Position numbers and translations under genes: made by a program
Notes under the pieces: model-generated
Told to the model about the DNA's origin: nothing
Database searches by the model: none
What the model saw: only the letters and a program-made list of their open reading frames with translations
Shown here: in pieces, positions 14,301-34,300 of the stretch
How the letters are laid out: each line of letters opens with the position of its first letter
How positions within the stretch are numbered: the first letter of the stretch is position 1
Source of the DNA: Nitrospinota bacterium
GTDB lineage: Bacteria > Nitrospinota_A > UBA7883 > JACRGQ01
Length of the DNA: 64,000 nucleotides
Direction: 5' to 3'
Assembly: GCA_016200345.1 (NCBI GenBank)
Contig: JACQEX010000074.1
Location: forward strand, 671 to 64,670

Positions 14301-16474
14301 TTAACACCCCTTTCGCCATTGAGATTAGAAACAACTTCCCCGGCGGATATTATATCTCGGTTGGCGCCCTCATAATCAAAAAAAGAGCGACAACTATATA
14401 TGATAAAATTACCGCTTGTATGAATAAAGATGGAGAGCCAAAAACAGGCGTTTCGGAACAGGTCGGGCTGGCGGTAGACCAACTCCCGACTTCCATCATC
14501 GTCTCATTATTTAATTGCGCAGTTTCCGTCGCGGTCCTTTGGGGGCACGTTTCAACCACCCCGTTGGCTGTTTGGATTACAACCGTCGTATTCGCCGCAT
14601 TAGGAAGGGCGGCGGTCTTACGAGCATACAGACGCGCGCCGCTTTCGCATACGCCCGAGGAGTGGCAGAGGCTGTTGTTTGTCTTGGCCCTCGCGGCGGG
14701 GTTGGCGTGGGGCCTTTCGGCATGGCCGGCGTTTGCCTCCGATTCGGGGCTTTACACGATATTTATGGCGGCCCTGGCCCTGGGGATGTGCTCCGGCGCG
14801 CTCGTGGCGAATTCGTCGTTGAGGGAATCAGCCCTGGCGTACATTATTTCCGCCATATCTCCCTTCGCGTTGGGATTCCTTGCCGGGGACGGGGGCATCA
14901 ACCACGCGCTGGGACTGATGATGATTATTTTCGTCGGCGCACTTTCGGTCTACGCCTCGAAACTTAGCAAAATGGTGTCGGCGTCCGTCCAACTTAGGGG
15001 CGAAAACGACGCCCTCCTGTTGGAAGTGACGCAAAACAAGGAGCGGCTGGAACAATTGGCCGCGATAGGGGAGGAGGGGGTGATTGTCTCCGACAAATTG
15101 ATTGTATTGGACTGCAACACCCCGCTCGCGAACATGGTCGAGTCGCAACCCAAAGACATGTTGGGAAAAAATGTGCTCGATTACGTCGAGCCAAAGTGTC
15201 ACGACCTCGTAAAAAAACTGTACGGCCAGGGGTATGAAGGGCTGTACGAAATTGAAATCGTCGGCGCAAGGGGAACGCGACGAAACGTGGAGGTGGTTTC
15301 CCGATACGGCGTTTACGGCGGGCGCAACGTCCGATACGCCACTATTCACGACATAACAAAGAGGAAGCAGGCCGACGACGCGCTGAAGCTCAGCGAGGAG
15401 AGGTTTAGGTCGCTCATCAACTCGATGGAGGACGGCGTGTTCGTAATTGACCTTGGCTATAGATTCGTCGGCTATTACGGCAACTGGCTAAACAATCTCG
15501 AAGTCACATCCGAGGAATTCGTCGGGCGCACCCTTTCGGAAATGTTCGGGCGCAAAGACGCCGAGATACACGAGAAATCCGCGGATATTGCGTTCAAGGG
15601 AGGCCCCGCAAGCTATGAGTGGTCGTTGGAATGGAACGAAAACCATGTCTTCTACCACACCACGCTCTCCCCGCTGTCCGATCCAGCCGGAGAGATTGTC
15701 GGAGCCGTAGGCGTTGTGCGCGACATCACGGCGATGAAGCAGAAGGAGTTGGAAATTATCGCCGCGAGGGACGAGGCGGAAAAGGCGACGTTATTGAAGG
15801 ACAAATTCCTGTCGCTTGTAGCGCACGACCTTAAGGGGCCGCTTGGCTCCATCATGGCCTCCATCACGCTTATCGGGGAAGATCCGGAAATAGCGGCGGA
15901 CAAAGAATTTCGAGATATCATCATCAAGACCGGACATGGAATGGTTCAATTGGTGGACGACATTTTAAACATCGGGCGTTTGAAAACCGGAAAGATAACA
16001 CCGGTGTTTAACAAAGTTCACGCGCGAGAAAAAGCCGTCGCGGCGCTTGGCAGGGTTGCAAACTCGGCCGATAAAAAGGGCGTGTCGCTTTTTAACCAAA
16101 TTGGGGCTGACGTCGTTGTGAACGCCGATGCGCAACTGCTCGAGGAGGTCATGTACAACCTAGCCTCCAACTCCGTGAAGTTTTGCCGAAAGGGGGGGGA
16201 CGTTGTTTTTTCTTTCGAGAAGACCGAATCGGAGGACGTGATAAAAGTGAGCGACACCGGTGTAGGAATTCCACCGGAACGGCTTTCCCATGTTTTTGAA
16301 TACCACACCGCGACGTCCACTTATGGAACCGACGGCGAAAAAGGCACGGGACTAGGCTTGCCCCTTTGCGGCGACATTGTCTCGGCGCACGGCGGCTCGC
16401 TTACGGCGGAGTCCGTTTTGGGCAAGGGGAGCGTCTTCTGTATCCGCCTTCCTAAATCCCAATCCAAGCATTAA
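14282..16474 (+). CDS. membrane-anchored PAS sensor histidine kinase
   Basis: Multi-TM N-terminal region, PAS domains, H-box [13 protein letters not shown], HATPase G-boxes, no receiver. The likely real start is the ATG at about 14420 (MNKDGEPK…), because the listed ORF overlaps the divergent MCP start. Confidence 0.85.
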
Positions 16475-17271: not shown

Positions 17272-19767
17272 CTATTCCACGTGGACAGGTTTTACGTTCC
17301 AGATGTCCTTGGCGTACTCCATTATAGTCCGGTCACTCGAAAACTTCCCCATATTAGCGGTATTCAATATAGACATCTTGTCCCATTGATTTTTATCCCT
17401 AAATGCTTTGGAAACCTTATCCTGGCATTCAATGTACTGTGCATAGTCGGCCAAAACTCGGAAAGTGTCCTTCCCCAACAGCGAATCCGATATGGGATGG
17501 AAAAGCTCGCGATGAAACGGCGAAAAGTAACCGTCGCCTATCATGTCTATCACGGCCTTCAACTCGGCATTGTTTTCGTAATAATCCATCGGATTGTAAC
17601 CGGCCTCGCCAAGCGCCGATATCTCTTCGGCTGTATGCCCAAAAATGAAGATGTTATCCTTGCCAACCTCGTCCATAATCTCAATATTTGCGCCGTCGAG
17701 GGTTCCTATTGTCATAGCCCCGTTAAGGGCAAACTTCATGTTGCCGGTGCCGGAGGCCTCCGTTCCGGCGGTGGAGATTTGCTCCGAGAGATCGGCGGCC
17801 GGAATTATTTTCTCCTCAAGCGAAACGCGATAGTTGGCTAAAAAGAGAACTTTAAGTTTGTCGCCAACCTGCCGGTCGGCGTTGACAACATCGGCGACTG
17901 AATTGATTAACTTAATAATAAGCTTGGCCATTTTATACGACGGAGCCGCTTTGCCGGCAAACAGAACCGTTCTAGGCGTAAACTCGCCGCCCTTGCCGGA
18001 CTTAATTCTATTATAGAGGGTTATTACGTGGAGTACGTTAAGTAATTGTCTTTTATACTCGTGTATCCTTTTAACCTGAACGTCAAAAATTGACTCGGTA
18101 TTCACCTTTATCCCGTTTTCCTTCAGGATGTACTCCGCAAGTTTTTCCTTATTGGCCTGTTTTACCGCGCGCCATTCGGCCCGGAACTTTGAATCCTTGG
18201 CGAACGGAATAAGTTTTTTGAGCTCGTCCAATTCTACAACCCACTTTTCCCCAATTTTTCCGGTGATAAGTTTTGATAGGCCGTCGTTGCATTTTTTCAA
18301 CCACCTTCTAGGGGTTATTCCATTGGTCTTATTGTTGAATTTCTCAGGGAAAATATCGTAAAAATCTTTTAACACATTGAGTTTTAAAAGGTCTGTGTGA
18401 AGCGCGGACACTCCGTTTACCGAATGCGATCCAACGATGGCTAGGAACGCCATCCTCACCATTTTCTCTTTTCCTTCCTCGATAATAGAGACTCGCTGGA
18501 TTCGGTCGTAGTCACCGGGAAATGATTTTGCCACGTGCTCGAGGAAACGCCTGTTAATTTCATATATTATTTGCATATGCCTTGGAAGAACCGTTTCCAT
18601 GAGGGCAACTGACCATTTTTCAAGGGCTTCCGGCATCAGGGTGTGGTTGGTGTAACCAAAAATTCTAACCGTAACCGCCCAGGCCTCGTCCCAATCGCAC
18701 TTTTCCTTATCTAACAAAATCCTCATAAACTCCGGAATTGCCAAAACCGGGTGGGTGTCGTTTAACTGAATTGCCACCAAATCTGGAACATTGGAGAAAT
18801 CCTTATTGTGCTTAACATGCCTTCTTACAATATCTTGCAAGGTGGCGCAGACGAGGAAATACTGCTGTTTTAGGCGTAGCTCCCTCCCCTCCGCGAAATG
18901 GTCGCTTGGATAGAGAACTTTCGATATAGTCTCCGACTTCATTTTGCTCTCAAGCGCGCGAATGTAGTCCCCTTGGTTGAAAAAACTTAAATCGAATTCC
19001 CTGGACGAGCGAGCCGCCCAAAGCCTCATGTTAATTACGTGGTTGTTGTTATAACCTGGCACCGGGGTGTCGCAGGCCATGGCCATGACCGTTTCCGCAT
19101 CCACCCATTCGCTATGGAGCTTTCCATGGGAATCCATATACTGATCCACCCTGCCGTAGAAGTTAACCGGAAAAAGATGTCCCGGCCTTACAAATTCCCA
19201 GGGGTTGCCGTACCTCAGCCAGTTGTCGGGAGCCTCCACCTGATTGCCGTTTTGGATAAACTGGTGGAAAATGCCGTACTCATAATGGATTCCGTAGCCG
19301 TAGGAAGGAATCTCAAGCGTCGCCAGCGAGTCCAGAAAACAGGCCGCAAGCCTGCCGAGACCGCCGTTTCCAAGCCCGGCGTCCCACTCAATTTCGCGGA
19401 TGTCCTCCAAATCGTAGCCCATTTGGTGCAACGCCTCGTGGCAGGCATCGAACAGCCCCATGTTGATGAGGCTGTTGCCAAAGGTCCTGCCGGCAAGGAA
19501 TTCAAGCGAAAGGTAATAAACCCTTTTCGCGTTTGTTTTGTAATAAGTGTTTTGTGTTTTTATCCATTTCTCTATAAGCCGGTCCCTTATTGCGAAAGAG
19601 GCGGCGTTATATATGTCGTAAGGCTGTGGTTTTGTGGGGTCTTTGCCCAGCGTAGAAACGATGTGATCTTTAATGTGCGCGACTAGGTCGGTCGCAAGTG
19701 CCCCGGGCGTTTTCGCCTTTGCCAATTTATTTGCCACTTTACCAGAATCCAACTTTTTTCCAGCCAT
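17272..19767 (-). CDS. glgP: alpha-glucan (glycogen/maltodextrin) phosphorylase
   Basis: 831 aa with the pyridoxal-phosphate motif EASGTGNMKFALNGA, typical of the GT35 family. Confidence 0.95.
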   Translation of the reverse strand: MAGKKLDSGKVANKLAKAKTPGALATDLVAHIKDHIVSTLGKDPTKPQPYDIYNAASFAIRDRLIEKWIKTQNTYYKTNAKRVYYLSLEFLAGRTFGNSLINMGLFDACHEALHQMGYDLEDIREIEWDAGLGNGGLGRLAACFLDSLATLEIPSYGYGIHYEYGIFHQFIQNGNQVEAPDNWLRYGNPWEFVRPGHLFPVNFYGRVDQYMDSHGKLHSEWVDAETVMAMACDTPVPGYNNNHVINMRLWAARSSREFDLSFFNQGDYIRALESKMKSETISKVLYPSDHFAEGRELRLKQQYFLVCATLQDIVRRHVKHNKDFSNVPDLVAIQLNDTHPVLAIPEFMRILLDKEKCDWDEAWAVTVRIFGYTNHTLMPEALEKWSVALMETVLPRHMQIIYEINRRFLEHVAKSFPGDYDRIQRVSIIEEGKEKMVRMAFLAIVGSHSVNGVSALHTDLLKLNVLKDFYDIFPEKFNNKTNGITPRRWLKKCNDGLSKLITGKIGEKWVVELDELKKLIPFAKDSKFRAEWRAVKQANKEKLAEYILKENGIKVNTESIFDVQVKRIHEYKRQLLNVLHVITLYNRIKSGKGGEFTPRTVLFAGKAAPSYKMAKLIIKLINSVADVVNADRQVGDKLKVLFLANYRVSLEEKIIPAADLSEQISTAGTEASGTGNMKFALNGAMTIGTLDGANIEIMDEVGKDNIFIFGHTAEEISALGEAGYNPMDYYENNAELKAVIDMIGDGYFSPFHRELFHPISDSLLGKDTFRVLADYAQYIECQDKVSKAFRDKNQWDKMSILNTANMGKFSSDRTIMEYAKDIWNVKPVHVE

Positions 19768-19933: not shown

Positions 19934-21694
19934 ATGGCCACTACCAGCACGACCTCAACGACGACGACCAATCCGTTGTCTACGTTGCTGAACACAGGAG
20001 GAGGAAATTCGGGGCTGTTGTCCATAAGCGGCCTCGCCTCGGGAATGGACACGACAAGCATCATCAATCAGTTGGTTTCGCTTACCAAGCAACCGGCCAC
20101 AAGCTTGGCCAACCAGCAGACTGCAAACAACAACAAAATATCGCAGTGGAATTCGCTTACCACTATGCTCAACACGCTCCAGAGCTCCGTTAGCACATTG
20201 AGAAATCCCACGACGTTCATGGGGACGCTGGCAAGTTTTACAAACAGCGTGGCGGGAAACCCGAGCATAATGAACCTTTCCACGACGTCGAACATCACTC
20301 CCGGCTCGCACAGCGTAACCGTTGGCGCGCTCGCAAAACAACAACAGTCCGTAAGCGCCCAATCTTATGCCAGCACCACCGCGACGATAGGCGGGTTCAC
20401 GGGGCTGACGATAGCAACCAGCGCCAACGGAACCCAAACTTTCACTCAAAATACGCTTCAAAGCCTTGCGGCGGCCGTGAACGGCTCCTCGCTCGGAGTC
20501 ACGGCCAACGTGGTGAACACCGCCGCCTCGGGCGCAACCCCCGCGTACGTCATGCAACTTAGCGCCAACAACTCCGGCACTGCGAACTCGTTTGTGGCGA
20601 CCACGAACGGGACTGCCTCCGGGACGCTTACCGGCACGCTCGATTTTGCCAACACCACCGGCCAGGTGGCAACCCTTGGCGGCGCAAGCGTGTTCCAGGC
20701 CTCTGCGAACGCGGCGGTGACAGTGGATGGAATAAGCCTGTCCAGGTCCTCCAACACGATTACGGACGCAATCTCCGGGCTTAGCATGTCCGTTACCGCG
20801 CTTGGCTCCGGCACGATAAATCTTACGAACGACGTTCCGACCACCGTTGCAAACGTCCAGACGTTTGTAAACGCCTATAACTCCGTCATGGGTTTTATCA
20901 ACACGCAGAACACGTACGACCCCAAGGCCGCGTCGCAACAACCCTTGTTCGCCGACCCGTCCCTGCAAAACATACAAAGCACCCTGCGGGGATTGGTCTC
21001 CGGGGCCTCCGCCGGAACGACCTCCACAAGCTCCGTTTACAGCTCCATGAGCCAGATAGGGATAAACTCAAGCCAAGCGAACAATTTCGCCGTATCCCTG
21101 GACACAAACGCGCTGACGTCCGCGTTGCAGACAAACGCCTCGGCTGTTCAGAATCTTTTCACGCCAGGCGGTAGCGGCACCGATTCGGCGGCTTCATACA
21201 CGTTCATATCCTCGCTTGGCAACGCGACGCCGGGAACCTACAACACCCAGGTGGTGGGGGGCGTATTGCAGATGCAAAAACAGGGAACCGGCACGTGGAT
21301 TTCCATGACCCAAGCTGGCACCATATACACCGGCCCCTCGGGAAGCGCTTTGGACGGCGTAAACATACAGGCTACGTCCCTCGGCACCACCGGAACCTAT
21401 ACGCTGTGGGGCGGCTCGGCGCAGATGATGTACCAAAGCCTGAACAACGACACCCTTTTTCAAACCGGGATGATTCCCGTTGAAACCGCGTCATTGTTGC
21501 GAAACAACACAGATTTGCAAAAGCAGATAGACACAATAAACACAAGGGCCTCGGCGCTACAGTCTACCCTGCAACTACAGTTTACAAACTTGGAGACACA
21601 CCTTTCGAAATTGCAGGCCCAAGGACAGTTTTTAACGCAACAGTTGAACTATTTGCCCGGCTGGTCAATGCCGGCAAACAAATCGTCCAGTTAA
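19934..21694 (+). CDS. fliD: flagellar filament capping protein (hook-associated protein 2)
   Basis: N-terminal SGMDTTSIINQLV… and a C-terminal coiled coil …LQFTNLETHLSKLQAQ…. Thr/Ser-rich central region. Confidence 0.85.
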   Translation: MATTSTTSTTTTNPLSTLLNTGGGNSGLLSISGLASGMDTTSIINQLVSLTKQPATSLANQQTANNNKISQWNSLTTMLNTLQSSVSTLRNPTTFMGTLASFTNSVAGNPSIMNLSTTSNITPGSHSVTVGALAKQQQSVSAQSYASTTATIGGFTGLTIATSANGTQTFTQNTLQSLAAAVNGSSLGVTANVVNTAASGATPAYVMQLSANNSGTANSFVATTNGTASGTLTGTLDFANTTGQVATLGGASVFQASANAAVTVDGISLSRSSNTITDAISGLSMSVTALGSGTINLTNDVPTTVANVQTFVNAYNSVMGFINTQNTYDPKAASQQPLFADPSLQNIQSTLRGLVSGASAGTTSTSSVYSSMSQIGINSSQANNFAVSLDTNALTSALQTNASAVQNLFTPGGSGTDSAASYTFISSLGNATPGTYNTQVVGGVLQMQKQGTGTWISMTQAGTIYTGPSGSALDGVNIQATSLGTTGTYTLWGGSAQMMYQSLNNDTLFQTGMIPVETASLLRNNTDLQKQIDTINTRASALQSTLQLQFTNLETHLSKLQAQGQFLTQQLNYLPGWSMPANKSSS

Positions 21695-21724
21695 ATAGGT
21701 AACACGTTCAAGGAGGAATGAGAG

Positions 21725-22159
21725 ATGGCGCAGAACTTAGCTTTGGCTTACCAAACGATAGACGTAAGCACCGCAAACAGAGTCAAGCTTGTCCTGATGT
21801 TATACGAGGGGGCGATACGCTTTCTGAAGGAGGCCAAGCAAAGAATCGGGACAAAGGACATCGCCGGAAGGGGCGTGTATCTTGCCAAGGCGTTGAGAAT
21901 TGTCGGCGAACTTCACGGCACGCTTAACCTCAAGGACGGGGGAAAGATTGCGGAGGAGTTGAACAGACTATATTTTTTCCTGACCAACAACATCACCAAG
22001 GCCAACATCACCGGAAACGCCAGGCTGATTGACGAGTCGGTTAAGGTGATGGAAACTTTGAGGGAGGGATGGGCCCAATTGGTGAAAGCGCCGGAGGCCA
22101 AGCAGGTTGTCCGCTCGGAGCCGGGCTTTCCGCGGCAACAAGTGGCGATTCGACTGTAG
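21725..22159 (+). CDS. fliS: flagellar export chaperone FliS
   Basis: 144 aa; LAYQTIDVSTANRVKLVLMLYEGAIRFLKEA is the FliS signature. Immediately downstream of fliD. Confidence 0.85.
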   Translation: MAQNLALAYQTIDVSTANRVKLVLMLYEGAIRFLKEAKQRIGTKDIAGRGVYLAKALRIVGELHGTLNLKDGGKIAEELNRLYFFLTNNITKANITGNARLIDESVKVMETLREGWAQLVKAPEAKQVVRSEPGFPRQQVAIRL

Positions 22160-22186: not shown

Positions 22187-24058
22187 TTAGAGATCCATCT
22201 CGAAGGAGATTATCCCCTCGTTCAGTTTGGTGGTCACCTTCAGCCCGCTGTTGAAGAAAACTTTCTGCATCGGCTTGTTTTCCGCAAGCACCTCGGCCGT
22301 AAACCCCGTAAGTCCGTTGCGCCTTGCTATCGTCGCCAGGTGGGACATCAAAAACGAGCCGACGCCCTTTTTTTGCCATGCGTCGGCCACCGTGAACGCG
22401 ACCTCGGCGCGGTTTGTTTTCTTGTCCAGATAATATGCCCCGACGGAGATTATCTCCTCCCCCGCCGCCGTTGGAAGCGTGCCGACGATGGAGACCGCGT
22501 TCCAATGGTCGATGTACACGAAGTTTTGCACCTGCGATCTCGGTATGGACTTCAACTGCGACATATACCTGTAGTACACGGTCTGCTTTGAAAGGTTGTA
22601 AAAAAGGTCGCGCATTCTCGGCTCGTCCGTGGGGTGGATTGCGCGGAAATTAATCTGGGTTCCGTCGTTCAACAGCATGGTGGCGCGAAGCTCCTTCGGC
22701 CCTATCTGGAACTTCCCCTCGACGTCCTTAAGCTCGGGCCTTAAATATTTTTCCTTTATCGCCTGCTCTATAAGCTCGGCGCGAAACTTCGGGTGCGCCA
22801 CACTTATCAACGCCAGCGTGCGCTCCTGCACGCTTTTGCCGTGGAGGTAGGCCACGCCAAATTCCGTTACAACGTAGTGCACGTCTCCCCTTGTTGTCAC
22901 GACGCCGGCGCCGGGCGTCAGCGTGCAGGTGATGCGCGAAATCGTGTCCCCTTTCGCCGTGGCCGGAAGCGCGATAATCGCCTTGCCCCTGGGCGCGCGG
23001 GCGGCCCCGCGGTTGAAATCCACCTGCCCGCCGATGCCGGAGTAAAACTCCGAGCCGAGCGAATCGGCGCAAACCTGCCCGGTGAGGTCCACCTGCAGGG
23101 CGGTGTTGATGGCCACCATTTTGTTTTGCCTTGATATCAACGTGGTGTCGTTCACGTATTCCGTCGGGTGGAACGAGAACACCGGGTTGTTGTCCACAAA
23201 ATCGTAAAGCTCCTGCGTGCCGAAACAGAAGCTTGCCACGACCTTTCCCTTGTCCAGCGTTTTATACGCGCCCGTGACGGCGCCGGATTTGATTAGTTCC
23301 ATCATGGAGTCCGTCACCATTTCGGTGTGGATGCCGAGGTCGCGCTTTCCCTTTAGCGACATCGCGACGGAGTGCGGGATTTTGCCGATGCCAAGCTCTA
23401 TCGTGGAGCCGTCCTCGACTAGGGAGGAGACGAACTCGCCAATTTTTTGCGAGACCTCGGTGGCCTTTACGTCCGGCATTTCTATAAGCGGCTCCTCGCA
23501 CGGAACCAGAACGTCAATGTCAAAGATGTTTATGAACGAATCGCCGAGCGTACGCGGCATGTTGGGGTTGACCTGGGCTATGACCGTCGTCGCGTTTTCC
23601 GCCGCGCTCTTTACAATGTCCACCGCCACGCCAAAACTGCACATTCCGTCCTCGTCCGGCGGGCCTACCTGTATAAGCGCCGTGTGAAGCGGAAGCCTGC
23701 CGGAGGCGAAAAGTCGCGGGATATCCGAAAGGAAAATGGGAGTGTAGCTTCCAAACCCCTCTCGAATCATCTCGCGCACCGTGTTGCCTATGTAAAAGGC
23801 GTTTACGGTGAAGGTGCCGGCGTATTTTTTATCCGCGTATGGCGCGTCCCCTATCGAAAGAAGCTGTACTATCTCGATGTCCGCAAGCTCGCCGGCCCGC
23901 GCCGTCAGCGCGCGGACAAGGCCCTGCGGCTCCGAACAGCCGCTACCGATGAAAACCCTCTGCCCCGAGTGGATTTTTTTAACAGCCTCGTACTGGGTCA
24001 TAAATAGCGAGGCGTATTTTGTCTTCCAGTTGGGGTCGAATTTCTTTTTTACGTCCAT
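22187..24058 (-). CDS. acetyl-CoA hydrolase/CoA-transferase family domain fused to a C-terminal Pat-like GNAT acetyltransferase
   Basis: The N-terminal ~430 aa fit the acetyl-CoA hydrolase/transferase fold (…GSGCSEPQGLV… / …GIGGQVDF…). The C-terminal ~180 aa fit GNAT (…AWQKKGVGSFLMSHLATIARRNGL…AEVLAENKPMQKVF…). Confidence 0.75.
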   Translation of the reverse strand: MDVKKKFDPNWKTKYASLFMTQYEAVKKIHSGQRVFIGSGCSEPQGLVRALTARAGELADIEIVQLLSIGDAPYADKKYAGTFTVNAFYIGNTVREMIREGFGSYTPIFLSDIPRLFASGRLPLHTALIQVGPPDEDGMCSFGVAVDIVKSAAENATTVIAQVNPNMPRTLGDSFINIFDIDVLVPCEEPLIEMPDVKATEVSQKIGEFVSSLVEDGSTIELGIGKIPHSVAMSLKGKRDLGIHTEMVTDSMMELIKSGAVTGAYKTLDKGKVVASFCFGTQELYDFVDNNPVFSFHPTEYVNDTTLISRQNKMVAINTALQVDLTGQVCADSLGSEFYSGIGGQVDFNRGAARAPRGKAIIALPATAKGDTISRITCTLTPGAGVVTTRGDVHYVVTEFGVAYLHGKSVQERTLALISVAHPKFRAELIEQAIKEKYLRPELKDVEGKFQIGPKELRATMLLNDGTQINFRAIHPTDEPRMRDLFYNLSKQTVYYRYMSQLKSIPRSQVQNFVYIDHWNAVSIVGTLPTAAGEEIISVGAYYLDKKTNRAEVAFTVADAWQKKGVGSFLMSHLATIARRNGLTGFTAEVLAENKPMQKVFFNSGLKVTTKLNEGIISFEMDL

Positions 24059-24062
24059 GGCG

Positions 24063-26165
24063 TTATTTGACCTCCCTTAGGGTGATTCTCGTGTCCGCCA
24101 CAACCGCGTCCTGCCCCGCCTCGCCGACCATAAAGGGGTTTATGTCCAACTCCGCCACCTGCGGGAACTCCGTGGCAAGCTGGCTGATGCGTTGCAACCC
24201 GTCGGCGATTGCCGAAAGGTTCACCCCGCTCTGTCCCCTGGCCCCTTTCAGCAGTTGGTACGAGCGGGTTGCCGTGAGCATTTGCATCGCCTCATCAGCC
24301 GTGATGGGGGCGAGGTGGAAGGCTACGTCCTTCATGACCTCGACAAAAATTCCGCCGAGTCCGAACATGAGCATGGGGCCGAACTGCGGGTCGCGGTTCA
24401 TGCCAAGAATTACCTCAAGCCCCTTTTTCGCCATCTTTTCCACGTAAACCCCCTCTATCCGCGCCTCCGGCGCCTTTTGGGGAATGCGCATCATCATCAG
24501 CTCAAACGCGTCGCGCACCATGTCGGCGGTGGTCAGGTTGAGCTTGACACCGCCTATGTCGGATTTATGGATTATGTCGGGCGACGAAATTTTTAGCGCC
24601 ACCGGATACCCAACCCTCTCCGCAATTTCCAACGCGTCATTCAAAGTCACGGCCAGCCTTCCGTCCGGCACGTTGAAACCGTACGCCCTTAGCATCTCCT
24701 TGGCCTGCACCTCGCCCACCTGCATTCTTCCGGTTTTCAGATGACGGGCCAACACGCGTTGAACCCTCGTGCTGTTCACCGGGAAGCGCGTAACCATTCG
24801 CGGCGGCCTGCGCCTCCATTCGGAATACTCGCACATCGCCTTCAAAGCCGAGACAGCTCGCTCCGGCGCGGTGTAGTCCGGAATTCTTGCAATAGTAAGC
24901 TCGTTCCTTCCCGGCATGACCTCCGTACCGCCCATGAACGAGACCAGCACCGGTTTTGTTATCCCCTCTTTAACGCACTTCGCAACCGCTTGTGCCGTCT
25001 CCGCCGGACGGGTCATCGCCTGCGGGGTAAGGATTACAAGAATTCCGTCCACGGCCTCGTCCGCCTCGGCCGTCTTAAGGGCCAGCACGTACCTGTCCGG
25101 ATCCGCGTCACCCAAAACGTCTATGGGGTTTCCCACGCTTGCCGCTGGGGGAAGTTTGCTTTTCAATTCCTCCGCCGTTTTATCCGTCAGCTTGGCGACA
25201 AGCATGCCGGAGTTCTCAAGCGCGTCCGCCGCCATGATGCCCGGCCCGCCCGCGTTGGTGATGACGGCGATTCTCCTTCCGTTGGGAAGGGGTTGCATGT
25301 CCAGCGCTATCGCGCAGTCGAACAACGCCTCGAAGGTTTTGGCTCGAACCACGCCGGATCTTTTAAATGCCGCCCCATAGGCCGTGTCGGCCCCGGCCAG
25401 ACTGCCGGTGTGCGACGATGCGGCCTTGACCCCTGCGGCGGATGTTCCCGCCTTTAACACCACCACCGGTTTGACGGCGGAGGCCTCCTCGGCGGCGCGG
25501 ATGAAATCCTTGCCGGAGTCAATGCTTTCGAGGTAGCAGACGATGACCTTGGTTTTTTCGTCCTTCTGAAGCGTCTTCAAAAGGTCAATTTCGTTTAGAT
25601 CCGCCTTGTTTCCGATGCTGAGCATTTTCCCGATGCCAAGTTTGCGCGACTCCGCCCAGTCCAATATCGCGGTGCAAAGCGCGCCCGACTGCGAAATTAC
25701 GGAGATGCTCCCCTCAATCGGCGTTTGACGCGCAAAAGAGACGTTCAATTTGTGATGGGTGTTTATGGCGCCAAGGCAGTTCGGCCCAAGCAGTCTTACC
25801 CCGGAGGCCTTGCAGTGGTTGGCAATTAGGGTCTCCAACTCCGCCCCCTCGTGCCCCGTTTCCTTAAACCCGGCGGTTATGACGATTATCGCCTTCGCTC
25901 CGGCGCTGACGGAATCGAACACCGCCCCCTTCACCGCCGCCGTAGGAACGGCAATGACGCTAAGGGCGATTTTTTGAGGTAGTGATTTTAAATCTTTAAA
26001 CGCTGGCACGCCCAAAATAACCGGGGAACCGGGATTTACCGGGAAAATTTTCCCTTGGTAACCGCCGTCCATGAGGTTTTTAAGAACGGCGTACCCCACC
26101 TTGCCCGGCGTGTTAGAAGCCCCTACGATTGCGACCGAATCTGGATATAAAAGCTCGTCAAGCAT
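24063..26165 (-). CDS. acetate/acyl-CoA ligase (ADP-forming), fused alpha-beta subunits
   Basis: CoA-binding VAIVGAS…, SHTGSLAG phosphohistidine loop, C-terminal ATP-grasp domain. Stops 4 nt before the CoA-transferase::GNAT gene. Confidence 0.85.
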   Translation of the reverse strand: MLDELLYPDSVAIVGASNTPGKVGYAVLKNLMDGGYQGKIFPVNPGSPVILGVPAFKDLKSLPQKIALSVIAVPTAAVKGAVFDSVSAGAKAIIVITAGFKETGHEGAELETLIANHCKASGVRLLGPNCLGAINTHHKLNVSFARQTPIEGSISVISQSGALCTAILDWAESRKLGIGKMLSIGNKADLNEIDLLKTLQKDEKTKVIVCYLESIDSGKDFIRAAEEASAVKPVVVLKAGTSAAGVKAASSHTGSLAGADTAYGAAFKRSGVVRAKTFEALFDCAIALDMQPLPNGRRIAVITNAGGPGIMAADALENSGMLVAKLTDKTAEELKSKLPPAASVGNPIDVLGDADPDRYVLALKTAEADEAVDGILVILTPQAMTRPAETAQAVAKCVKEGITKPVLVSFMGGTEVMPGRNELTIARIPDYTAPERAVSALKAMCEYSEWRRRPPRMVTRFPVNSTRVQRVLARHLKTGRMQVGEVQAKEMLRAYGFNVPDGRLAVTLNDALEIAERVGYPVALKISSPDIIHKSDIGGVKLNLTTADMVRDAFELMMMRIPQKAPEARIEGVYVEKMAKKGLEVILGMNRDPQFGPMLMFGLGGIFVEVMKDVAFHLAPITADEAMQMLTATRSYQLLKGARGQSGVNLSAIADGLQRISQLATEFPQVAELDINPFMVGEAGQDAVVADTRITLREVK

Positions 26166-26268: not shown

Positions 26269-26997
26269 TCAGACGCGATAATGTTTGTCTAAAAATTCCT
26301 TTGTCGGGTAGCCGGAACGCCCCACGGCGTCAATAAGCGCCTGCTTGTCAAGCTCCACTTGGTGGTGTTTGACGGAGACCCCTCCCCTATCGGCCGTCAC
26401 CACGGCAAAATCTGCGCGCGCAAATATTACGGGCGGACTGCCGTTGAAAAACTCCTTGAAAGGAGCCCCCACGCTTCCGGGGTTCAGCAGAAGGGTCCCG
26501 TTAAGCTTGCGCGACCATTGAAGATGCGTATGGCCGATCGCAATCATCGAAAGCCCGGAGCAGTCAAAAAACGATTTAATTTTTTCGTCGTCCGCCTCGG
26601 AAAGAACGTTGTCGGTGTTGTTGTGTGCGGAGCCGTGGTAAAAACGCAGTGTGTGGCCCGAGTCCTTGATTGTAATTTCAGGCGAAAAATTTCTGATGAA
26701 TTCCTTGTCGTCCTTGGACAATTGCTCCCTGCACCAGTCAATCCCCTGAATAATCGGCGGGAAAGAGGTGTATTCGACCACCTTATGCGGGGATAAAATA
26801 AAGTCGTCGTGGTTGCCCATGACGCATTTGATGGACTGGTCGCGCAACAACGCCAAAACCCCGCGCGGATCCGGGCCGAGGGTCGCCACGTCGCCAAGGC
26901 AGATTACGGAGTCGGCCCCCTCTTTTTTGATTACGCGCAGGGTCTCCTCAAGGGCGATTAAGTTCCCGTGCAAATCAGATATTATCGCGATACGCAA
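26269..26997 (-). CDS. metallophosphoesterase (calcineurin-like phosphoesterase)
   Basis: MRIAIISDLHGN…, GDVATLGPDP, GNHD and GHTH motifs. Confidence 0.8.
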   Translation of the reverse strand: MRIAIISDLHGNLIALEETLRVIKKEGADSVICLGDVATLGPDPRGVLALLRDQSIKCVMGNHDDFILSPHKVVEYTSFPPIIQGIDWCREQLSKDDKEFIRNFSPEITIKDSGHTLRFYHGSAHNNTDNVLSEADDEKIKSFFDCSGLSMIAIGHTHLQWSRKLNGTLLLNPGSVGAPFKEFFNGSPPVIFARADFAVVTADRGGVSVKHHQVELDKQALIDAVGRSGYPTKEFLDKHYRV

Positions 26998-27090
26998 ATC
27001 GTCACCATGTGTCGAGTATATCCTTTGAGGTCAGGCAGATTCAAGTTTTGGAGGCCGATAAACTATAAAAAATGGCATAATTGAAAAAAC

Positions 27091-27120
27091 TTGATTTTTC
27101 GCTATTCTTTCGCTTATAAT
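27091..27120 (+). promoter_or_regulatory. sigma-70-type promoter of lexA with embedded direct repeat
   Basis: TTGATT-N18-TATAAT. The -10 ends 7 nt before the lexA ATG (leaderless or near-leaderless). The spacer carries TTTCGCT-N4-TTTCGCT, a candidate operator. Confidence 0.4.
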
Positions 27121-27127
27121 TCAACCC

Positions 27128-27736
27128 ATGATAGTGACAAAGAGACAAAAGGAAATTTTGGATTTCGTAAACGTTTTTAAGGAAAAACGCGGATATGCGC
27201 CGAGCATAAACGAAATTGGCGGCCAGTTTAAAATCAGCTCCCCCGCCACCGTTCACCAGCACCTAAAAAACCTTCAGGAAAAGGGGCTTATAAGGCGGTC
27301 ACCAAGCCGACATCGGTCAATCGAGGTGATTCCTTCGCAAGGGGCGGAACACAACGGAATTTATGTGCCGGTGTTGGGCGAGATTGCCGCCGGGTACCCG
27401 ATAGAGTCGTACGCGGAGCCGGACGTAATGACCATGCCGCGCGAGTTGGGGGCGGACGAGGAGTGCTATCTTTTGAGGGTGCGCGGTGATTCGATGATAG
27501 AGGACCATATTTTGGACGGCGATTTGGTGCTTGTCCGAAAATCAATGACGGCCAAACCGGGCCAGACGATAGTTGCGCTGATAGACGGGCGCGAGGCGAC
27601 GCTGAAAAAATATTTTGTGGAAGGCGGTCGAATCCGCCTGGAGCCGGCCAACTCAACGATGCAACCGCTCTATTTCGAGCCTGTGCGTGTGCGGATACAG
27701 GGCACCGTCGTCGGCGTGATAAGAAAATATTCTTAG
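27128..27736 (+). CDS. lexA: LexA repressor
   Basis: N-terminal winged HTH; S24 peptidase core GDSMIEDHILDGDLVLV with the cleavage-site region. Confidence 0.9.
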   Translation: MIVTKRQKEILDFVNVFKEKRGYAPSINEIGGQFKISSPATVHQHLKNLQEKGLIRRSPSRHRSIEVIPSQGAEHNGIYVPVLGEIAAGYPIESYAEPDVMTMPRELGADEECYLLRVRGDSMIEDHILDGDLVLVRKSMTAKPGQTIVALIDGREATLKKYFVEGGRIRLEPANSTMQPLYFEPVRVRIQGTVVGVIRKYS

Positions 27737-27938: not shown

Positions 27939-28014
27939 CGGGCGAATAGCTCAGTTGGTAGAGCGCCAGCCTTACAAGCTGGATGCCACAGGTTCGAGCC
28001 CTGTTTCGCCCACC
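27939..28014 (+). tRNA. tRNA-Val (anticodon TAC), CCA encoded
   Basis: GGGCGAA acceptor stem, D-arm TAGCTCAGTTGGTAGAGCG, anticodon stem-loop CCAGC-CTTACAA-GCTGG, T-arm GGTTCGAGCCC, 3' CCA. A TATAAT box lies about 20 nt upstream. Confidence 0.85.
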
Positions 28015-28318
28015 AAATAAACAAAACAATCCCTCCGGGCATTGTTTTGTTTATTTCATCGGTTTGCGACAGGGCTCGAAAGCAAACTCCCGGAGCGAGC
28101 CGGCGAGCTCAAACGGACAGGACGTCCGTTTAGGGAGTTTGTCGGGCCTGATGGAGCAACAACAGGATGTTGTTGCGAGAGCAGGCGACCCTGTTTCGCC
28201 CACCAAATAAACAAAACAATCCCTCCGGGCATTGTTTTGTTTATTTCGTCGGTTTGCGACAGGGCTCGAAAGCAAACTCCCGGAGCGAGCCGGCGAGCTC
28301 AAACGGACAGGACGTCCG
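27998..28318 (+). repeat. two 131-nt direct repeats (27998-28128 and 28188-28318, 1 mismatch) separated by 59 nt
   Basis: Each unit comprises the last 17 nt of tRNA-Val (ccctgtttcgcccacca), the terminator hairpin, and ~70 nt downstream. The second unit carries only the tRNA 3' fragment. Confidence 0.8.
28015..28056 (+). terminator. rho-independent terminator after tRNA-Val
   Basis: aaacaaaacaatccctccgggcattgttttgttt hairpin followed by a T-rich tail. An identical copy lies at about 28205-28246. Confidence 0.6.
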
Positions 28319-28404
28319 TCCCGGCCTCTGACACAAGATTTAATACATCACCGACGATGCTGACCAATTTGACTATTTCTATCGGGGCGCATATCATTTT
28401 CTTT

Positions 28405-29127
28405 ATGAAAAACATACTAAACAAATTGCGCGGAAAGAACCTCAGGATTTTTCTATTTTCAGTTTTTTTTGTAGTGGCGCATTCACCAATTGAAACCTAT
28501 GCCGCAGACACTACAAAAATTGGCCCTGCGGAAAAGGTTGCAAACTCTTACGACTCCTTGACTATAATCACGATCTTTGCAATTTTTCTTGCACCTGTAA
28601 TAGCTATACAGGCGCAGGTGTACCTTGAGCAAAAACGGGAGAAAAAACGAGGCAAGGCACAAGTATTTATTACGTTAATGGCAACTAGGGCCACACCAAC
28701 ATCTGCCGCATCGGTTGAGGCATTAAACCGCATAGACATCGCTTTCCATAAGGACAAAAAAATTAAAGATGCATGGCGAGCCTTGCTTGATGTTTACGAC
28801 AATTTTCCAAAAGATATTAACGACGGCGATTATTCTCGCAAACTACAGTTGAGCAACGAAAAGGCCGTGGAAGAGCGCATAAATTTATTATATGAAATGG
28901 CACAGTCGTTAAAATTTGATTTTGACAAGGTTCATCTGAAGAGAGCGTGTTACTACCCTGCAGGACATAATTTCCTTGAAAATGAGCAGAGCATAATCAG
29001 AGGAGGCCTGGCACAAATTTTGACGGGCAACAAGGCATTCCCAATTTTTCTTGTAAATCCAACCAATCAACCTCCTGCGGAAGGCCATAACGAAAAAGGC
29101 CCAAAAGAAATAGCCAACAAGTCATGA
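28405..29127 (+). CDS. hypothetical secreted/membrane protein
   Basis: Signal-peptide-like N-terminus MKNILNKLRGKNLRIFLFSVFFVVAHSPIETYA, one further TM helix, Lys-rich linker. Low-GC gene. The upstream part of listed ORF 28042.. runs across the tRNA duplicate and terminators and is discounted. Confidence 0.5.
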   Translation: MKNILNKLRGKNLRIFLFSVFFVVAHSPIETYAADTTKIGPAEKVANSYDSLTIITIFAIFLAPVIAIQAQVYLEQKREKKRGKAQVFITLMATRATPTSAASVEALNRIDIAFHKDKKIKDAWRALLDVYDNFPKDINDGDYSRKLQLSNEKAVEERINLLYEMAQSLKFDFDKVHLKRACYYPAGHNFLENEQSIIRGGLAQILTGNKAFPIFLVNPTNQPPAEGHNEKGPKEIANKS

Positions 29128-30154: not shown

Positions 30155-31231
30155 ATGGCAACACATAGAACATTAATCGCGGCGTTTGTTTCCGCCATTC
30201 TCATTAGCGCGGGAATTGCCGGCGCCGACTGCGGTTTTCTTGAGGACAGGCCCCAGCCCAAATGGGTCGCCGAAGTCCCCGTACTCGAGGGTTTTTACGT
30301 CGGCGTCGGCTCAGCCGGAAAGGGAAATAGCCAGCAGGAGCAGGAGAACGCCTCCCTTTTAAACGCGCTCTCCTACATCACCAGCCAGGTCTCCGTGAAA
30401 ATAAATTCCAAGTCTTCCGACGTGTCCAGCTCCACATCCAAAGGCTCCAGCGAACAGACGAGCCAGAGCGTGGAATCCAAGGTGGAGTTAAAATCCGAGG
30501 AGCTTTTAAAGGACGTGACCATCATTGAAAAGTGGCTGAACGGCAACTCCTGCCAGCTTTACACATTGGTCAAAGTCCCCAAGGATTCCGTCACCGCAAA
30601 CAAAAATTATAAGAAGATGACCTTCCTTTACGCGCAAAGCCAGAAATCCGGACTTCAGGCCAACGAGTCGCTTGGCTATCTGACCGAGGCGAAGGCCCTG
30701 TTGCCTGAGATTAAGTTCGCGTTCATTCACGAGCAGAACGATCCTAAATACTGGGCGGAACTTATAGACAAGGCGATTGAGAGGTGCCAGGCCGAGGTGG
30801 GCAAAAAGAAAAACGTAATCATGCTGGTCATGAAAAAGAACCCGAAGCCGGAGGAGGCGGTTACCATACCCCTGACCGTCGTTCAAAAGCTTGCGGCGTA
30901 CATCGCCGGGCTAAACCCGGTGTGGACCGACATGTCCAACTCCCCCTGCGTGTCGGTCGAGTCATGCCTGGAAAAAGCCAGAAAAACCGGCGTTGAAGGC
31001 GTATTGGTTTTAATCTGCTCCGGCGGTTCAAAACAGAGCAATCTAGGCTCGTTCAAGGGAACGCTGACGGTCGAGATTTCCCAATACGACCTCAAACTCA
31101 ACACGAAGGCCGGCACCCCGCAGTTATTTTCATCCGCAGTTCCGTCCCCGTTTTCCAAGGAGGAGCTCGACTGGAATTTGGCCGTTGAAAAACTGATAAA
31201 CAGCAAAAAACTGGATTATTTAAAAGACTAA
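30155..31231 (+). CDS. lipoprotein with LPP20-like N-terminal domain
   Basis: Signal peptide with Cys (…GIAGADCG). PKWVAEVPVLEGFYVGVGSAGKGN resembles LPP20/FlgP-type lipoproteins. Confidence 0.55.
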   Translation: MATHRTLIAAFVSAILISAGIAGADCGFLEDRPQPKWVAEVPVLEGFYVGVGSAGKGNSQQEQENASLLNALSYITSQVSVKINSKSSDVSSSTSKGSSEQTSQSVESKVELKSEELLKDVTIIEKWLNGNSCQLYTLVKVPKDSVTANKNYKKMTFLYAQSQKSGLQANESLGYLTEAKALLPEIKFAFIHEQNDPKYWAELIDKAIERCQAEVGKKKNVIMLVMKKNPKPEEAVTIPLTVVQKLAAYIAGLNPVWTDMSNSPCVSVESCLEKARKTGVEGVLVLICSGGSKQSNLGSFKGTLTVEISQYDLKLNTKAGTPQLFSSAVPSPFSKEELDWNLAVEKLINSKKLDYLKD

Positions 31232-31337: not shown

Positions 31338-34300
31338 TTGGGGATGAAGAAACTTTTAGCGCTAGCTTTTTTCCTCTGTTTTTTGGCCGGCGTGGTTGCG
31401 TTTGCCGACGAAGAAACCCCGCCCACCCCGCCGCCCGCCCCAGCTGAGGAAAAAAAGGAAGCGCCGGCAGGCAACAATACGGAGGCCCCGCCGCCCCAGA
31501 CAATAGAGAAACCGGCGGCGGAGGCAAAGCCCGCGGTTCCCGAAAAACCCGTCGTCGTTCTTTTGCCAATCACGATGAAGGGGGTCTCGGACATGGAGCT
31601 TTCCGTCTTCCGCGACGCCCTTGCCGAAAGCCTTTCAGCCAAATACCAGGTCAAGTACGGCGAGCAGACCGACAAGATTATCGAGGAGATATTTAAGTCG
31701 CACGCCGCTGATTCGCTGGAGAGCGACGAGAGCGTTTCCTACAAGGACGTGGTAGCCACATTGGACGCGACGCTCATTGGAAAGGCAACAATATTTGAGA
31801 AAGACGGGGACTACCACATAAGCGTGATAGTCTATAACGTAAACGAGAACAAGGCGGAGGTTTCGCGCACCGCTAATTGCGAAAAATGCACGACGGCGGA
31901 ATTGGAGACCAAGCTAAAAGAGACGGCCTCGGGCGTAAAAATCGCCCCTGTCGCTCCCGAGCCGCCACCCGCAAAAGCCGCGAAGACCAACGACACGGAA
32001 CTTACATACTGGGCCAGCATCAAGGAAAGCACCAACCCGGAAGATTTCGAGTCCTATTTGCAGGATTTTCCAAAAGGCTCTTTTACCAACCTTGCAAAAT
32101 CCCGAATAGTGAAGCTGTCGAAATTGAACCCCAAAAAGGTGGTGTCCACCGTTCCGCCGGTAATTGTTCACACCCCGGCCAAGACGGCGATAGACTCCAC
32201 AAGCTTTGTCTTAAAGGCCAAAATTACGAAAGAGACCGGGGTTGTTGCTTCCGCATTTGTGTACTTCAGGCGAGGCATACAGGATTTTATCAAAGAGCCG
32301 CTTGTTGCGGGGGCCGGCGGTCAATACGAGTACAAGGTGCCGCAGGAATTCATGAAAAGAGGCAAGTTTGAATATTATCTAGAAGCCACGGACGAGGCCG
32401 GGAACATGGCGCGGGCCGGAAAAGCGTCCGAGCCGCTTATTACGAGAATTATACAAATACTGCCCTATTCCGAGGGGATGGTCGCCGACCGTAAGCGCGA
32501 CGGCAAGGATTTGACCATCAACGTTGGAACGCTTGCCGGCGTTAAAAAGGGGGATATTCTTTTTGTAATACGGGCTGACGAAAAGGTTATTGACCCTGTT
32601 ACAAAGGAGGTTTTAAGCGTCCGACAGGTTCTTGCGGGAAAAATTAAGGTGGTCTCAGCGTCCGAACGAACCTCCGCCGCGCGCGTGGAGGACGAGATGA
32701 AACACGAGACCATAACGCCGGGAATGATCGTTCGGGCGCGAAACGACATTGTTTTAAATATCTCCGGCTCCACAAGCCAATTGAGGCGCGTTGACCTTTC
32801 GTGGGAACGCTCAAGCGAGCCGGAGGCGGACGGTTACGTGATTTATCGCTCATCCGAACCTGATGCAGGCTACAAAAAAATTGGACAGGTAAAAGAGCCG
32901 GAAATCACAACCTATTCGGACATAGACTCGAAGTCCAACCAATTAAAGGACGCCACCGTTTATTACTATCGCGTCGTGGCGCTAAACGAGGCCGGCGGCG
33001 AGGGGAACGTTGGCGAGTCCGTGGCCGTTACGACAAAAGGCGGGCCGGAGGGGCCGGAGACGATATCGGCGGTATCCGGTGAAATTAGGCAGATATCTTT
33101 TTCGTGGTCGCAGGCGCATGACACCGACGTGGCCGGATATATTTTACAGATGGGCTCCGCCGACAAAGGCGCCTTTACCGATGTTACGACCCTAAAAGGC
33201 GCCGACAACGTGAAATATGTCGCAAAAAAATCCAAGGAAGTGGATTTGGAGGACGGCAAGCAGTACCAATTCCGACTTGTTCCGTTCAACAAGCTTGGAA
33301 CAAAGGGGAAGCCATCGCGAACGGTTGTGGCCTCGACGCACGGCAAGCCGGAAAAGCCGAAGCCGCCCAGAATGGAGAAGGCGTTTGTGCGTAGTTTCAC
33401 CATTGCGTGGGACGCGCACCCCGACAAAGGCGTGGTTGGGTACGCCCTTTATCGCAAGGACCCGATCGCGAAGGAGTTCAAAAAGATTTACGAGGGGAAC
33501 GCGAAAACCCTGTCGTATATCGACAAGGGGAACCACCTACAGGACGGCGTGTCTTACCTGTACGCCGTATCCGCGTCCATCGGAGGCGGAATCGAAAGCC
33601 CCCTTTCCGACGGGGTCGAGACGAAAACATTCGGGGCGCCGGAGACCCCGACCGGACTGACGGCCTCCGAGGGAAAATACCGCGAAATTCTACTCGGATG
33701 GGAGCCGATTAAGAAAGAGGAAATCACGGGTTATGAGATTTACAAAATGGACGGAACCAAGGCCGTTTCGCTGACAAAAATATCCGGCAAGGAAAAGGCC
33801 TCTTACAGCGACAAGTCCAAACTTTTGGACGGCAAAACCTACCAGTACAAAATTGCCAGCTTTAACGTGGCGGACGTCCACAGCGCGCTTTCCGAGGCGG
33901 TTCAAGGCGCCACCAAACCGGTTCCGGCGAAGGTGCAGGGGCTTGTCGGCACCAGCGAGGAGGTTAAGCAAACGAAGCTCGAGTGGACAGCGAATGCGGA
34001 AAAGGACATCAAGACTTACGTTGTTTGGAAAAGCGCGGAAGAGGCCAAAAAGGGCTCCACTGCGGGCGACACAAAAACCGCGTCATTCACGGCGAAAAAT
34101 CTTGACGACGGCGGCGCCTACTATTTCAGGGTCGGGGCGACAGACGCGGACGGGCTGGAGAGCGAACTTTCCGACCCGGTGAAAATTACCACCAAGCCTT
34201 TGCCGGGCGCCCCCGGGTCTCTTACGGCGACTCCGACAGCGACGTCGGTGGCCCTATCATGGAGCGCCTCCCCCGCATCCGACGTGGTCAAGTACAACGT

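Follow-up and report, generated by a model that had tools for sequence, protein, structure and literature searches.

Reversible acetylation of the AMP-forming acetyl-CoA synthetase (Acs) is the best-studied case of protein acetylation in bacteria, and its writers, the acetyltransferases, fall into five types that were defined almost entirely in Proteobacteria, Firmicutes and Actinobacteria. A pair of adjacent genes in a Nitrospinota bacterium (GTDB lineage Bacteria; Nitrospinota_A; UBA7883; JACRGQ01; GenBank assembly GCA_016200345.1) raises the question of what form such a writer may take in other lineages. The pair occupies positions 22,187 to 26,165 of a 64,000-nucleotide stretch of contig JACQEX010000074.1 (positions 671 to 64,670 of the forward strand), hereafter the window, and encodes a fused alpha-beta ADP-forming acyl-CoA synthetase (ACD) followed by a protein in which a class I CoA-transferase is joined to a GNAT domain of the kind found in the protein lysine acetyltransferase Pat. 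An earlier interpretation made from the letters alone (the sequence-only reading) described the pair as a Pat enzyme split over two genes. The reading favoured here, to which we give a probability of about 0.55, is that of an acetate/acyl-CoA energy module whose GNAT would acetylate Acs and whose CoA-transferase, itself still active, would replace the dead sensor domain of Pat, which resembles acyl-CoA synthetases (ACS-like).

The limits of the genes and the four-nucleotide gap between them, as given by the sequence-only reading, were confirmed, with both open reading frames (ORFs) on the minus strand (Table 1), and Pfam found the three domains it had named (ACD, CoA-transferase and GNAT). When the junction is read letter by letter, the ATG of the fusion gene (24058-24056) stands four nucleotides (CGCC) after the ACD stop codon TAA, and its ribosome-binding site AGGGAGG lies inside the 3' end of the ACD gene. 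This layout suggests that translation of the two genes is coupled. The fusion has a database twin with 100% identity, filed at NCBI as 'MAG: GNAT family N-acetyltransferase [Nitrospinae bacterium]' (MAG, metagenome-assembled genome); the sequences are already public, under generic annotations.

The first gene bears directly on the idea of a split Pat. Its product is covered by Pfam from residue 9 to 696 (CoA_binding; Succ_CoA_lig, 1e-53; Ligase_CoA_2; ATP-grasp_5, 2e-83), and its five-subdomain architecture, with two CoA-binding/flavodoxin-like domains, a ligase-CoA domain and an ATP-grasp, is that of an NDP-forming acyl-CoA synthetase. With the ADP-forming acetyl-CoA synthetases of archaea and bacteria and the Nitrosopumilus 4-hydroxybutyrate-CoA ligase (8wzu, 4xyl) it shares the full alpha-beta architecture, the histidine loop and the HKSD motif of the beta part; its score is just under the cutoff of the TIGR02717 family (562.1 against 567.15 bits) and far under that of the 4-hydroxybutyrate-CoA ligase equivalog (633 against 1300). 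As the sequence-only reading had noticed, the SHTGSLAG loop is kept in this separately encoded protein: His252 is present, and at the position of 'SSHTGSLAGAD' E. coli PatZ (9it0) shows a gap and 'LNTTAGMD'. That gap fits the published account, in which the ACS-like domain of Pat is inactive since the histidine is missing (PMC8556138). The window protein looks like a complete enzyme with its catalytic histidine. Among structures of the Protein Data Bank (PDB) the closest is 8wzu, the ADP-forming 4-hydroxybutyrate-CoA ligase (523 bits, residues 5-695), and full-length Pat (9it0/9isq) follows with 358 bits over residues 2-684 and the same domain order. The description of the pair as a split Pat was therefore dropped, given also that the pair is widespread and co-inherited (see below), and a recent fission of Pat was rejected, since the ACD retains the histidine and is closer to true ligases.

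A subtler version of the same idea is that of a three-part Pat, in which the ACD binds the fusion protein and acts in trans as its regulatory and docking domain. The alignment of the ACD with PatZ over residues 2-684 in equal domain order speaks for it, as does the finding that the ACS-like domain of PatZ is required both for catalysis and to form the pocket for Acs (PMC12184503). The histidine that Pat lacks and the higher score to a true ligase speak against it, and the fusion already has a large acyl-CoA-binding domain of its own. We regard such an arrangement as unlikely, and return to it below with the genomic evidence.

That large domain belongs to the AbfT/Cat2 family of class I CoA-transferases. 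Pfam recognizes AcetylCoA_hydro at residues 20-184 (6e-26) and AcetylCoA_hyd_C at 280-433 (2e-64), the best PDB matches are 9vag (452 bits) and 3gk7 (359 bits), and the AlphaFold2 (AF2) model of the fusion superposes on 3gk7 with a template modelling (TM) score of 0.92 and a root-mean-square deviation of 1.8 Å. Foldseek gives about 40-44% identity to the stand-alone 4-hydroxybutyrate CoA-transferases 3gk7 and 2oas. Fold, catalytic glutamate and GxGGQ motif are those of AbfT and of the butyryl-CoA:acetate CoA-transferases (Cat2; 3gk7, 2oas, 9vag; also Yersinia RipA), which, unlike the fusion, are stand-alone proteins of about 430-450 residues devoid of a GNAT. Glu246, the predicted nucleophile, falls on residue 238 of the Clostridium aminobutyricum enzyme AbfT, which we take to be its catalytic glutamate, with Glu249 as the presumed counterpart in RipA. 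Conservation was counted over 99 full-length fusion proteins sharing 27-65% identity, 96 of which could be scored at this position: the glutamate is kept in 87 of the 96, and the GIGGQ motif (residues 341-345) is conserved as well. In a few members of the alignment the glutamate is lost, to alanine in three and to proline in two, which hints that in some lineages the transferase domain may have turned into a pure sensor, as in Pat.

The second half of the fusion is matched by Acetyltransf_1 and Acetyltransf_3 of Pfam over residues 471-606 and also by Acetyltransf_7, and the two strings on which the sequence-only reading had based its comparison with Pat, RAIHPTDEPRMRDLFYNLS and YRYMS, were located at residues 472-490 and 496-500. 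That comparison stood up well. The best NCBIfam match is 'acetyltransferase Pat' (NF058543, E 2.7e-24), and eight of the nine PDB matches of the isolated domain are Pat enzymes, with S. lividans PatA (4nxy, 1e-20), M. tuberculosis PatA (4ava, 2e-16), full-length Pat (9isq/9it0, 1e-14) and M. smegmatis Pat among them; the ninth, 1vhs, is marginal (E 3e-4). With scores so strong, chance is not an issue as a source of the resemblance. Glu552 aligns with the glutamate of 'AEVAF' in S. lividans PatA and of 'AEIAF' in M. tuberculosis PatA, and the Q-x-x-G-x-G acetyl-CoA loop aligns too; Glu552 would presumably serve as general base. Across the 99 proteins this position holds glutamate in 93 and aspartate in six, and the loop residues Q562, G565 and G567 are found in 97, 89 and 94, respectively. 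Because the transferase glutamate and the GNAT glutamate are both kept family-wide, both halves of the fusion seem to be active enzymes, in contrast to the ACS-like domain of Pat.

The AF2 model mentioned above was built from 119 sequences, with a predicted local distance difference test score (pLDDT) of 81.8, and replaced a discarded 13-sequence model (pLDDT 52). It is confident in both domains and uncertain at the linker and at GNAT residues 490-519 (alpha1-alpha2), the region equivalent to the mobile gating motif of PatZ (PMC12184503). No solved structure found by Foldseek spans both domains; the best query-normalised TM-score, 0.67, corresponds to the first two thirds of the model.

The state of the GNAT also bears on a purely metabolic explanation, according to which protein acetylation plays no part: the GNAT of a bifunctional enzyme would modify some small molecule by acetylation or acylation, or would have no catalytic role and serve to bind acyl-CoA. 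In favour of this, GNATs as a class are promiscuous in function, the score of the fusion is under the Pat equivalog cutoff and the window encodes no target; nevertheless, the PDB matches are to lysine acetyltransferases of the Pat group, with only the marginal 1vhs being phosphinothricin-acetyltransferase-like, the catalytic glutamate and acetyl-CoA loop are conserved, and genes for HDAC-type (histone deacetylase) proteins and Acs are repeatedly linked to the pair. This is in our view the least probable of the explanations considered.

Which type of Pat does the fusion then represent? With type I enzymes (Salmonella enterica Pat, E. coli PatZ; 9isq, 9it0) it shares a C-terminal Pat-type GNAT carried on a large acyl-CoA-binding domain, the presence in the system of an ACS(NDP-forming) protein of the same domain order, and a link to Acs in the genomes of relatives. 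On the other hand, the GNAT is joined to a class I CoA-transferase instead of an ACS-like domain, the ACS-like protein comes from its own gene and retains the catalytic histidine that PatZ lacks, and the GNAT matches that of PatZ only at E 1e-14. The closest solved GNATs are those of type II PatA of S. lividans (4nxy) and type III PatA/Pat of mycobacteria (4ava, 4orf), where the glutamate of AE(V/I)AF and the Q-x-x-G-x-(G/A) loop align; in these enzymes, unlike the fusion, the GNAT is accompanied by an ACS-like domain at the C-terminus or a cAMP-binding domain at the N-terminus. A single chain of GNAT and histidine-less NDP-forming ACS-like domain, which defines types I and II, is not what the pair encodes. 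No CoA-transferase partner appears among the types I to V listed in a 2021 review (PMC8556138), nor in the structure-based survey of the 2025 PatZ structure paper (PMC12184503), which covers types I to IV and divides type III into three kinds, and full-text searches of the literature found no paper on the CoA-transferase::GNAT architecture. What appears to be new is a Pat-family writer with a different, still enzymatic large domain, set in a conserved operon with ACD.

Searches with the GNAT alone returned 3278 relatives at E<=1e-10 among 1.84 billion cluster representatives. Within the top 150 of these, 53 carry a CoA-transferase domain and nine carry ACS-like domains, several of the latter with the GNAT N-terminal as in type II Pat; most of the remainder are short or fragmentary. 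A rough neighbour-joining tree, which lacks support values, places the transferase-fused GNATs together and apart from the group of S. lividans PatA and M. tuberculosis PatA. The kinship with Pat supposed by the sequence-only reading is borne out by the profile and PDB matches; in the tree these GNATs do not fall among the type II/III Pat GNATs. Other partners were seen among the same 150 representatives, one being fused to an acetate kinase domain and one to a SAVED domain, and a 960-residue protein (P0241) has a 4Fe-4S dicluster domain N-terminal to CoA-transferase::GNAT.

The frequency of the fusion had been raised as a question by the sequence-only reading. A scan with one genome per species found relatives in at least 598 species genomes, and in the best 80 of these the matches are nearly all full-length and come from over 20 phyla, among them Thor-, Bathy- and Thermoplasmata archaea. 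A word-indexed search gave a similar picture: the best 120 of at least 8000 candidates, from Verrucomicrobia, Planctomycetes, Deltaproteobacteria, Myxococcota, Actinomycetota and others, are nearly all of 620-634 residues (one has 670), with the same architecture and 61-83% identity. The sequence-only reading had allowed that the fusion might prove to be a widespread, already characterised family unrelated to Pat; widespread it is, but it is related to Pat, and no characterisation was found in the literature. In Thorarchaeota MAGs the fusion gene also occurs in tandem copies (L065, 1769-5823; L073, 5908-9835), with Acs and MFS (major facilitator superfamily) genes nearby in L073.

The two genes travel together. 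The clade of proteins sharing at least 54% identity with the window fusion includes 35 loci with enough flanking sequence to be judged, and in 34 of these an ACD gene in the same orientation immediately precedes that of the fusion. Over 39 loci, the identities between pairs of ACD proteins closely follow those between their fusion partners (Mantel r = 0.89, reached by none of 2000 permutations). A Nitrospinae relative 83% identical to the window protein (P0002) has the same pair, with a 4-nt overlap, among wholly different flanking genes. As a unit the pair is old, widely distributed and inherited together, and the window copy is a typical member. Both proteins are 60-68% identical across phyla as distant as Nitrospinae, Verrucomicrobia, Actinomycetota and Deinococcota, an unusually high value that suggests horizontal spread of the pair. 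A search of PLSDB plasmid proteins gave 401 matches to the CoA-transferase only and no full-length fusion.

Near-obligate adjacency with translational coupling in the window's clade, and the matched divergence of the two proteins, are also what a three-part Pat with the ACD acting in trans would produce, and a 625-residue metagenomic protein (P0144) adds to this by joining ACD residues 104-540 to a module-type GNAT. However, most loci of the family's distant half lack an adjacent ACD, and P0144 is a single N-truncated sequence that could be an assembly chimera. Its ACD part, which keeps the histidine loop, runs directly into a GNAT 42% identical to that of the module, with the catalytic glutamate changed to aspartate; it is either a natural deletion giving a chain like type I Pat, or such a chimera.

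What the GNAT might act on is indicated by the neighbours of the pair in relatives. Neighbour families were obtained by clustering all ORFs of 80 loci, the best-scoring of the at least 598 and almost all from MAGs. The recurring ones are a Hist_deacetyl protein (18 of 80), an AMP-forming Acs (15 of 80), an MFS transporter (9 of 80) and, in Desulfobulbaceae, a protein with a CBS pair (5 of 80). In a Limisphaera MAG (L004, 3774-13108), ACD, fusion, HDAC-type deacetylase, AMP-forming Acs and MFS transporter follow one another in one direction, the deacetylase gene overlapping the stop codon of the fusion; locus L002 is similar. The L004 cluster looks like a complete acetate-switch operon, and its Acs scores above the TIGR02188 equivalog cutoff (1027 against 725). 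PKTRSGKIMR, which contains the PX4GK motif, is present in all 14 neighbouring Acs with intact C-termini, and its lysine is the one that we take to be acetylated by Pat and AcuA. This agrees with the PatZ work, where Pat-type enzymes target Acs, and where the large domain of PatZ binds acetyl-CoA, activates the GNAT cooperatively and helps to form the Acs pocket (PMC12184503). The gene set in relatives is the known writer-eraser-target set for Acs, with the fusion in the place of the writer. A protein with AAA_26 and DRTGG domains, resembling the N-terminal part of phosphotransacetylase, recurs beside ACD and fusion in archaea and Anaerolineae (L048, L056, L069 and L072).

These neighbourhoods recall the acuABC-acsA genes of B. 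subtilis, where AcuA is a GNAT, AcuB a CBS/ACT protein and AcuC an HDAC-type deacetylase. In four Desulfobulbaceae loci (L012, L027, L033 and L035) the order HDAC, CBS-pair protein, ACD and fusion recalls acuC/acuB/acuA, Acs is adjacent in the 15 loci counted above, and L004 also partly has the arrangement. Here, however, a Pat-type enzyme joined to a CoA-transferase takes the role of acetyltransferase, ACD is added, and the window, which holds no AcuB-, AcuC- or Acs-like genes, is not of AcuABC type. NCBIfam gave no AcuB or AcuC equivalog match for the CBS-pair and HDAC neighbours, nor was an ACT domain confirmed in the CBS protein; 'AcuB/AcuC-like' is an architectural resemblance only.

Taken with the catalytic residues, this context leads to the following model, which is in line with the suggestion of the sequence-only reading that the pair could be an acetate/acyl-CoA module with a layer of acetylation. 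The pair would be a two-gene module moving as a unit. ACD would interconvert acyl-CoA, ADP and inorganic phosphate with acid, ATP and CoA by way of phospho-His252, and the transferase, with Glu246 as nucleophile, would swap CoA between acetate/acetyl-CoA and another short-chain acid, so that together they could cash several acyl-CoAs for ATP or activate several acids, in a logic resembling the CoA-transferase/succinyl-CoA-synthetase cycle. The GNAT, with Glu552 as general base, would acetylate a protein lysine from acetyl-CoA; from homology and context the likeliest target is the PX4GK lysine of AMP-forming Acs. Acetylation of Acs would shut the ATP-wasting route from acetate to acetyl-CoA while ACD runs in the acetate-forming direction, and would block a futile cycle in which ACD forms acetate and ATP and Acs consumes acetate and two ATP equivalents. 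The CoA-transferase domain would stand where type I/II Pat has its large acyl-CoA-binding regulatory domain, allosterically coupled to the GNAT and yet catalytically competent. Deacetylation would fall to the HDAC-type (AcuC-like) enzyme that neighbours the pair in many relatives and that, if present in the genome of the window, lies elsewhere. The roles of Acs as target and of the HDAC-type protein as eraser are proposed because of the genomic context in relatives.

The module might instead regulate itself, the GNAT acetylating ACD, the CoA-transferase domain or both, and thereby throttling acetyl-CoA turnover. The domains are physically close and co-expressed, and the pair is conserved even where, as in the window, neither Acs nor HDAC is nearby. 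No conserved target lysine turned up, though ACD and the CoA-transferase domain were not searched for PX4GK, and the extra neighbours that do occur are Acs and a deacetylase, matching the known logic of Pat/AcuA and Acs. Self-acetylation seems to us improbable, to about the same degree as an ACD acting in trans. It is because of the linkage to Acs and deacetylases that acetylation of Acs by the fusion is preferred to all the rivals.

Several observations weigh against this preference. The 64-kb window itself contains no Acs, deacetylase or sirtuin, and a tblastn search of it for the Acs, HDAC, MFS, CBS-pair and DRTGG neighbours gave no match. Acs or HDAC adjoins the pair in just about a fifth of the loci, and of 22 loci from the family's more distant half just 7 have ACD anywhere in the flank. 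As to substrates, the GNAT scores 85 against an equivalog cutoff of 460 bits for NF058543, and the transferase 301 against 675 bits for TIGR03948, the model of butyryl-CoA:acetate CoA-transferase. No biochemical work on any member of the family was found in the literature.

A bolder extension, which we hold only tentatively and consider rather doubtful, makes the fusion a sixth architectural type of Pat. Its live CoA-transferase would be the sensor, the covalent Glu-CoA state reporting the balance of acyl-CoA and carboxylate directly to the acetyltransferase. Single-chain Pat would have descended from an operon of this kind, running from ACD to fusion, by loss of the transferase and of the catalytic histidine, with P0144 as a snapshot of the route.

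In the window the pair is flanked by fliD/fliS and, at its other end, by a metallophosphoesterase gene and lexA, none of which is conserved with it. The metallophosphoesterase gene (26269-26997, minus strand) was considered as a third gene of the module and rejected, the closest relative having the pair in unrelated flanks. It and lexA (plus strand) are divergent within 26269-27736, and the spacer between them holds sigma-70-like matches at 27044-27015 (minus) and 27091-27120 (plus). The former could possibly be the promoter of a three-gene transcript of metallophosphoesterase and pair, which is unproven; sigma-70-like sites are no more numerous in the region than in shuffled sequence. An Rfam scan near the operon found no riboswitch or other RNA element.

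Table 1. Features of the gene pair and its upstream region (window positions).
Feature	Positions	Strand	Basis or detail
ACD gene, fused alpha-beta ADP-forming acyl-CoA synthetase, 700 aa	24063..26165	-	ORF and Pfam
CoA-transferase::GNAT fusion gene, 623 aa	22187..24058	-	ORF; stop codon 22187-22189
Junction of ACD and fusion genes	24059..24077	-	AGGGAGG ribosome-binding site 24077-24071; TAA 24065-24063; CGCC spacer 24062-24059
His252 codon, SHTGSLAG loop, phosphohistidine site of ACD/succinyl-CoA synthetase (SCS) enzymes	25410..25412	-	Aligns with 'SHTGAL' of 8wzu
Class I CoA-transferase domain, AbfT/Cat2 family, residues 10-437	22748..24031	-	Pfam, TIGR03948, PDB, AF2
Glu246 codon (HTEM motif), predicted CoA-thioester-forming nucleophile	23321..23323	-	Aligns with residue 238 of C. 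aminobutyricum AbfT (3gk7)
Interdomain linker, residues 438-453	22700..22747	-	Low AF2 confidence at 444-456; between Pfam domain limits
Pat-type GNAT domain, residues 454-623	22190..22699	-	Pfam, NCBIfam, PDB
Glu552 codon (AEVAF), predicted GNAT general base; acetyl-CoA loop Q562-K-K-G565-V-G567 follows	22403..22405	-	Aligns with 4nxy and 4ava
Sigma-70-like match upstream of metallophosphoesterase gene	27015..27044	-	9/12 positions match

Farther out, the module adjoins motility and sensing genes, namely those for a methyl-accepting chemotaxis protein (12375-14300, minus), a PAS histidine kinase (14282-16474, plus) and fliD with fliS (19934-22159, plus), and a glycogen phosphorylase gene (17272-19767, minus) lies within a stretch of 46.7% G+C. 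On the other side, a tRNA-Val (27940-28015, plus) is followed directly by a DUF6680 gene (28042-29127), and G+C at 28-30 kb is 46% against about 54% for the window; this stretch may be an island integrated at the tRNA. Beyond it come a gene with an LPP20-lipoprotein domain (30155-31231) and that of a 1045-residue protein with fibronectin type III and Ig-like repeats (31338-34475, plus). ARAGORN called a tRNA-Ala with anticodon AGC at 40578-40653 (minus), with no Rfam tRNA match at the gathering threshold, and the call may be spurious or may mark a degenerate tRNA.

The module suggests how the same control of Acs could operate in lineages that are hard to culture, such as Nitrospinae, the PVC group, Desulfobacterota, Chloroflexota and the Asgard and TACK archaea, where the writer would have an enzyme of acyl-CoA metabolism as its large domain. 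If this is true, a widespread new type would be added to the classification of acetyltransferases, there would be a concrete example of a protein acetyltransferase that senses through a domain which is also a metabolic enzyme, and the origin of Pat would have a testable route.

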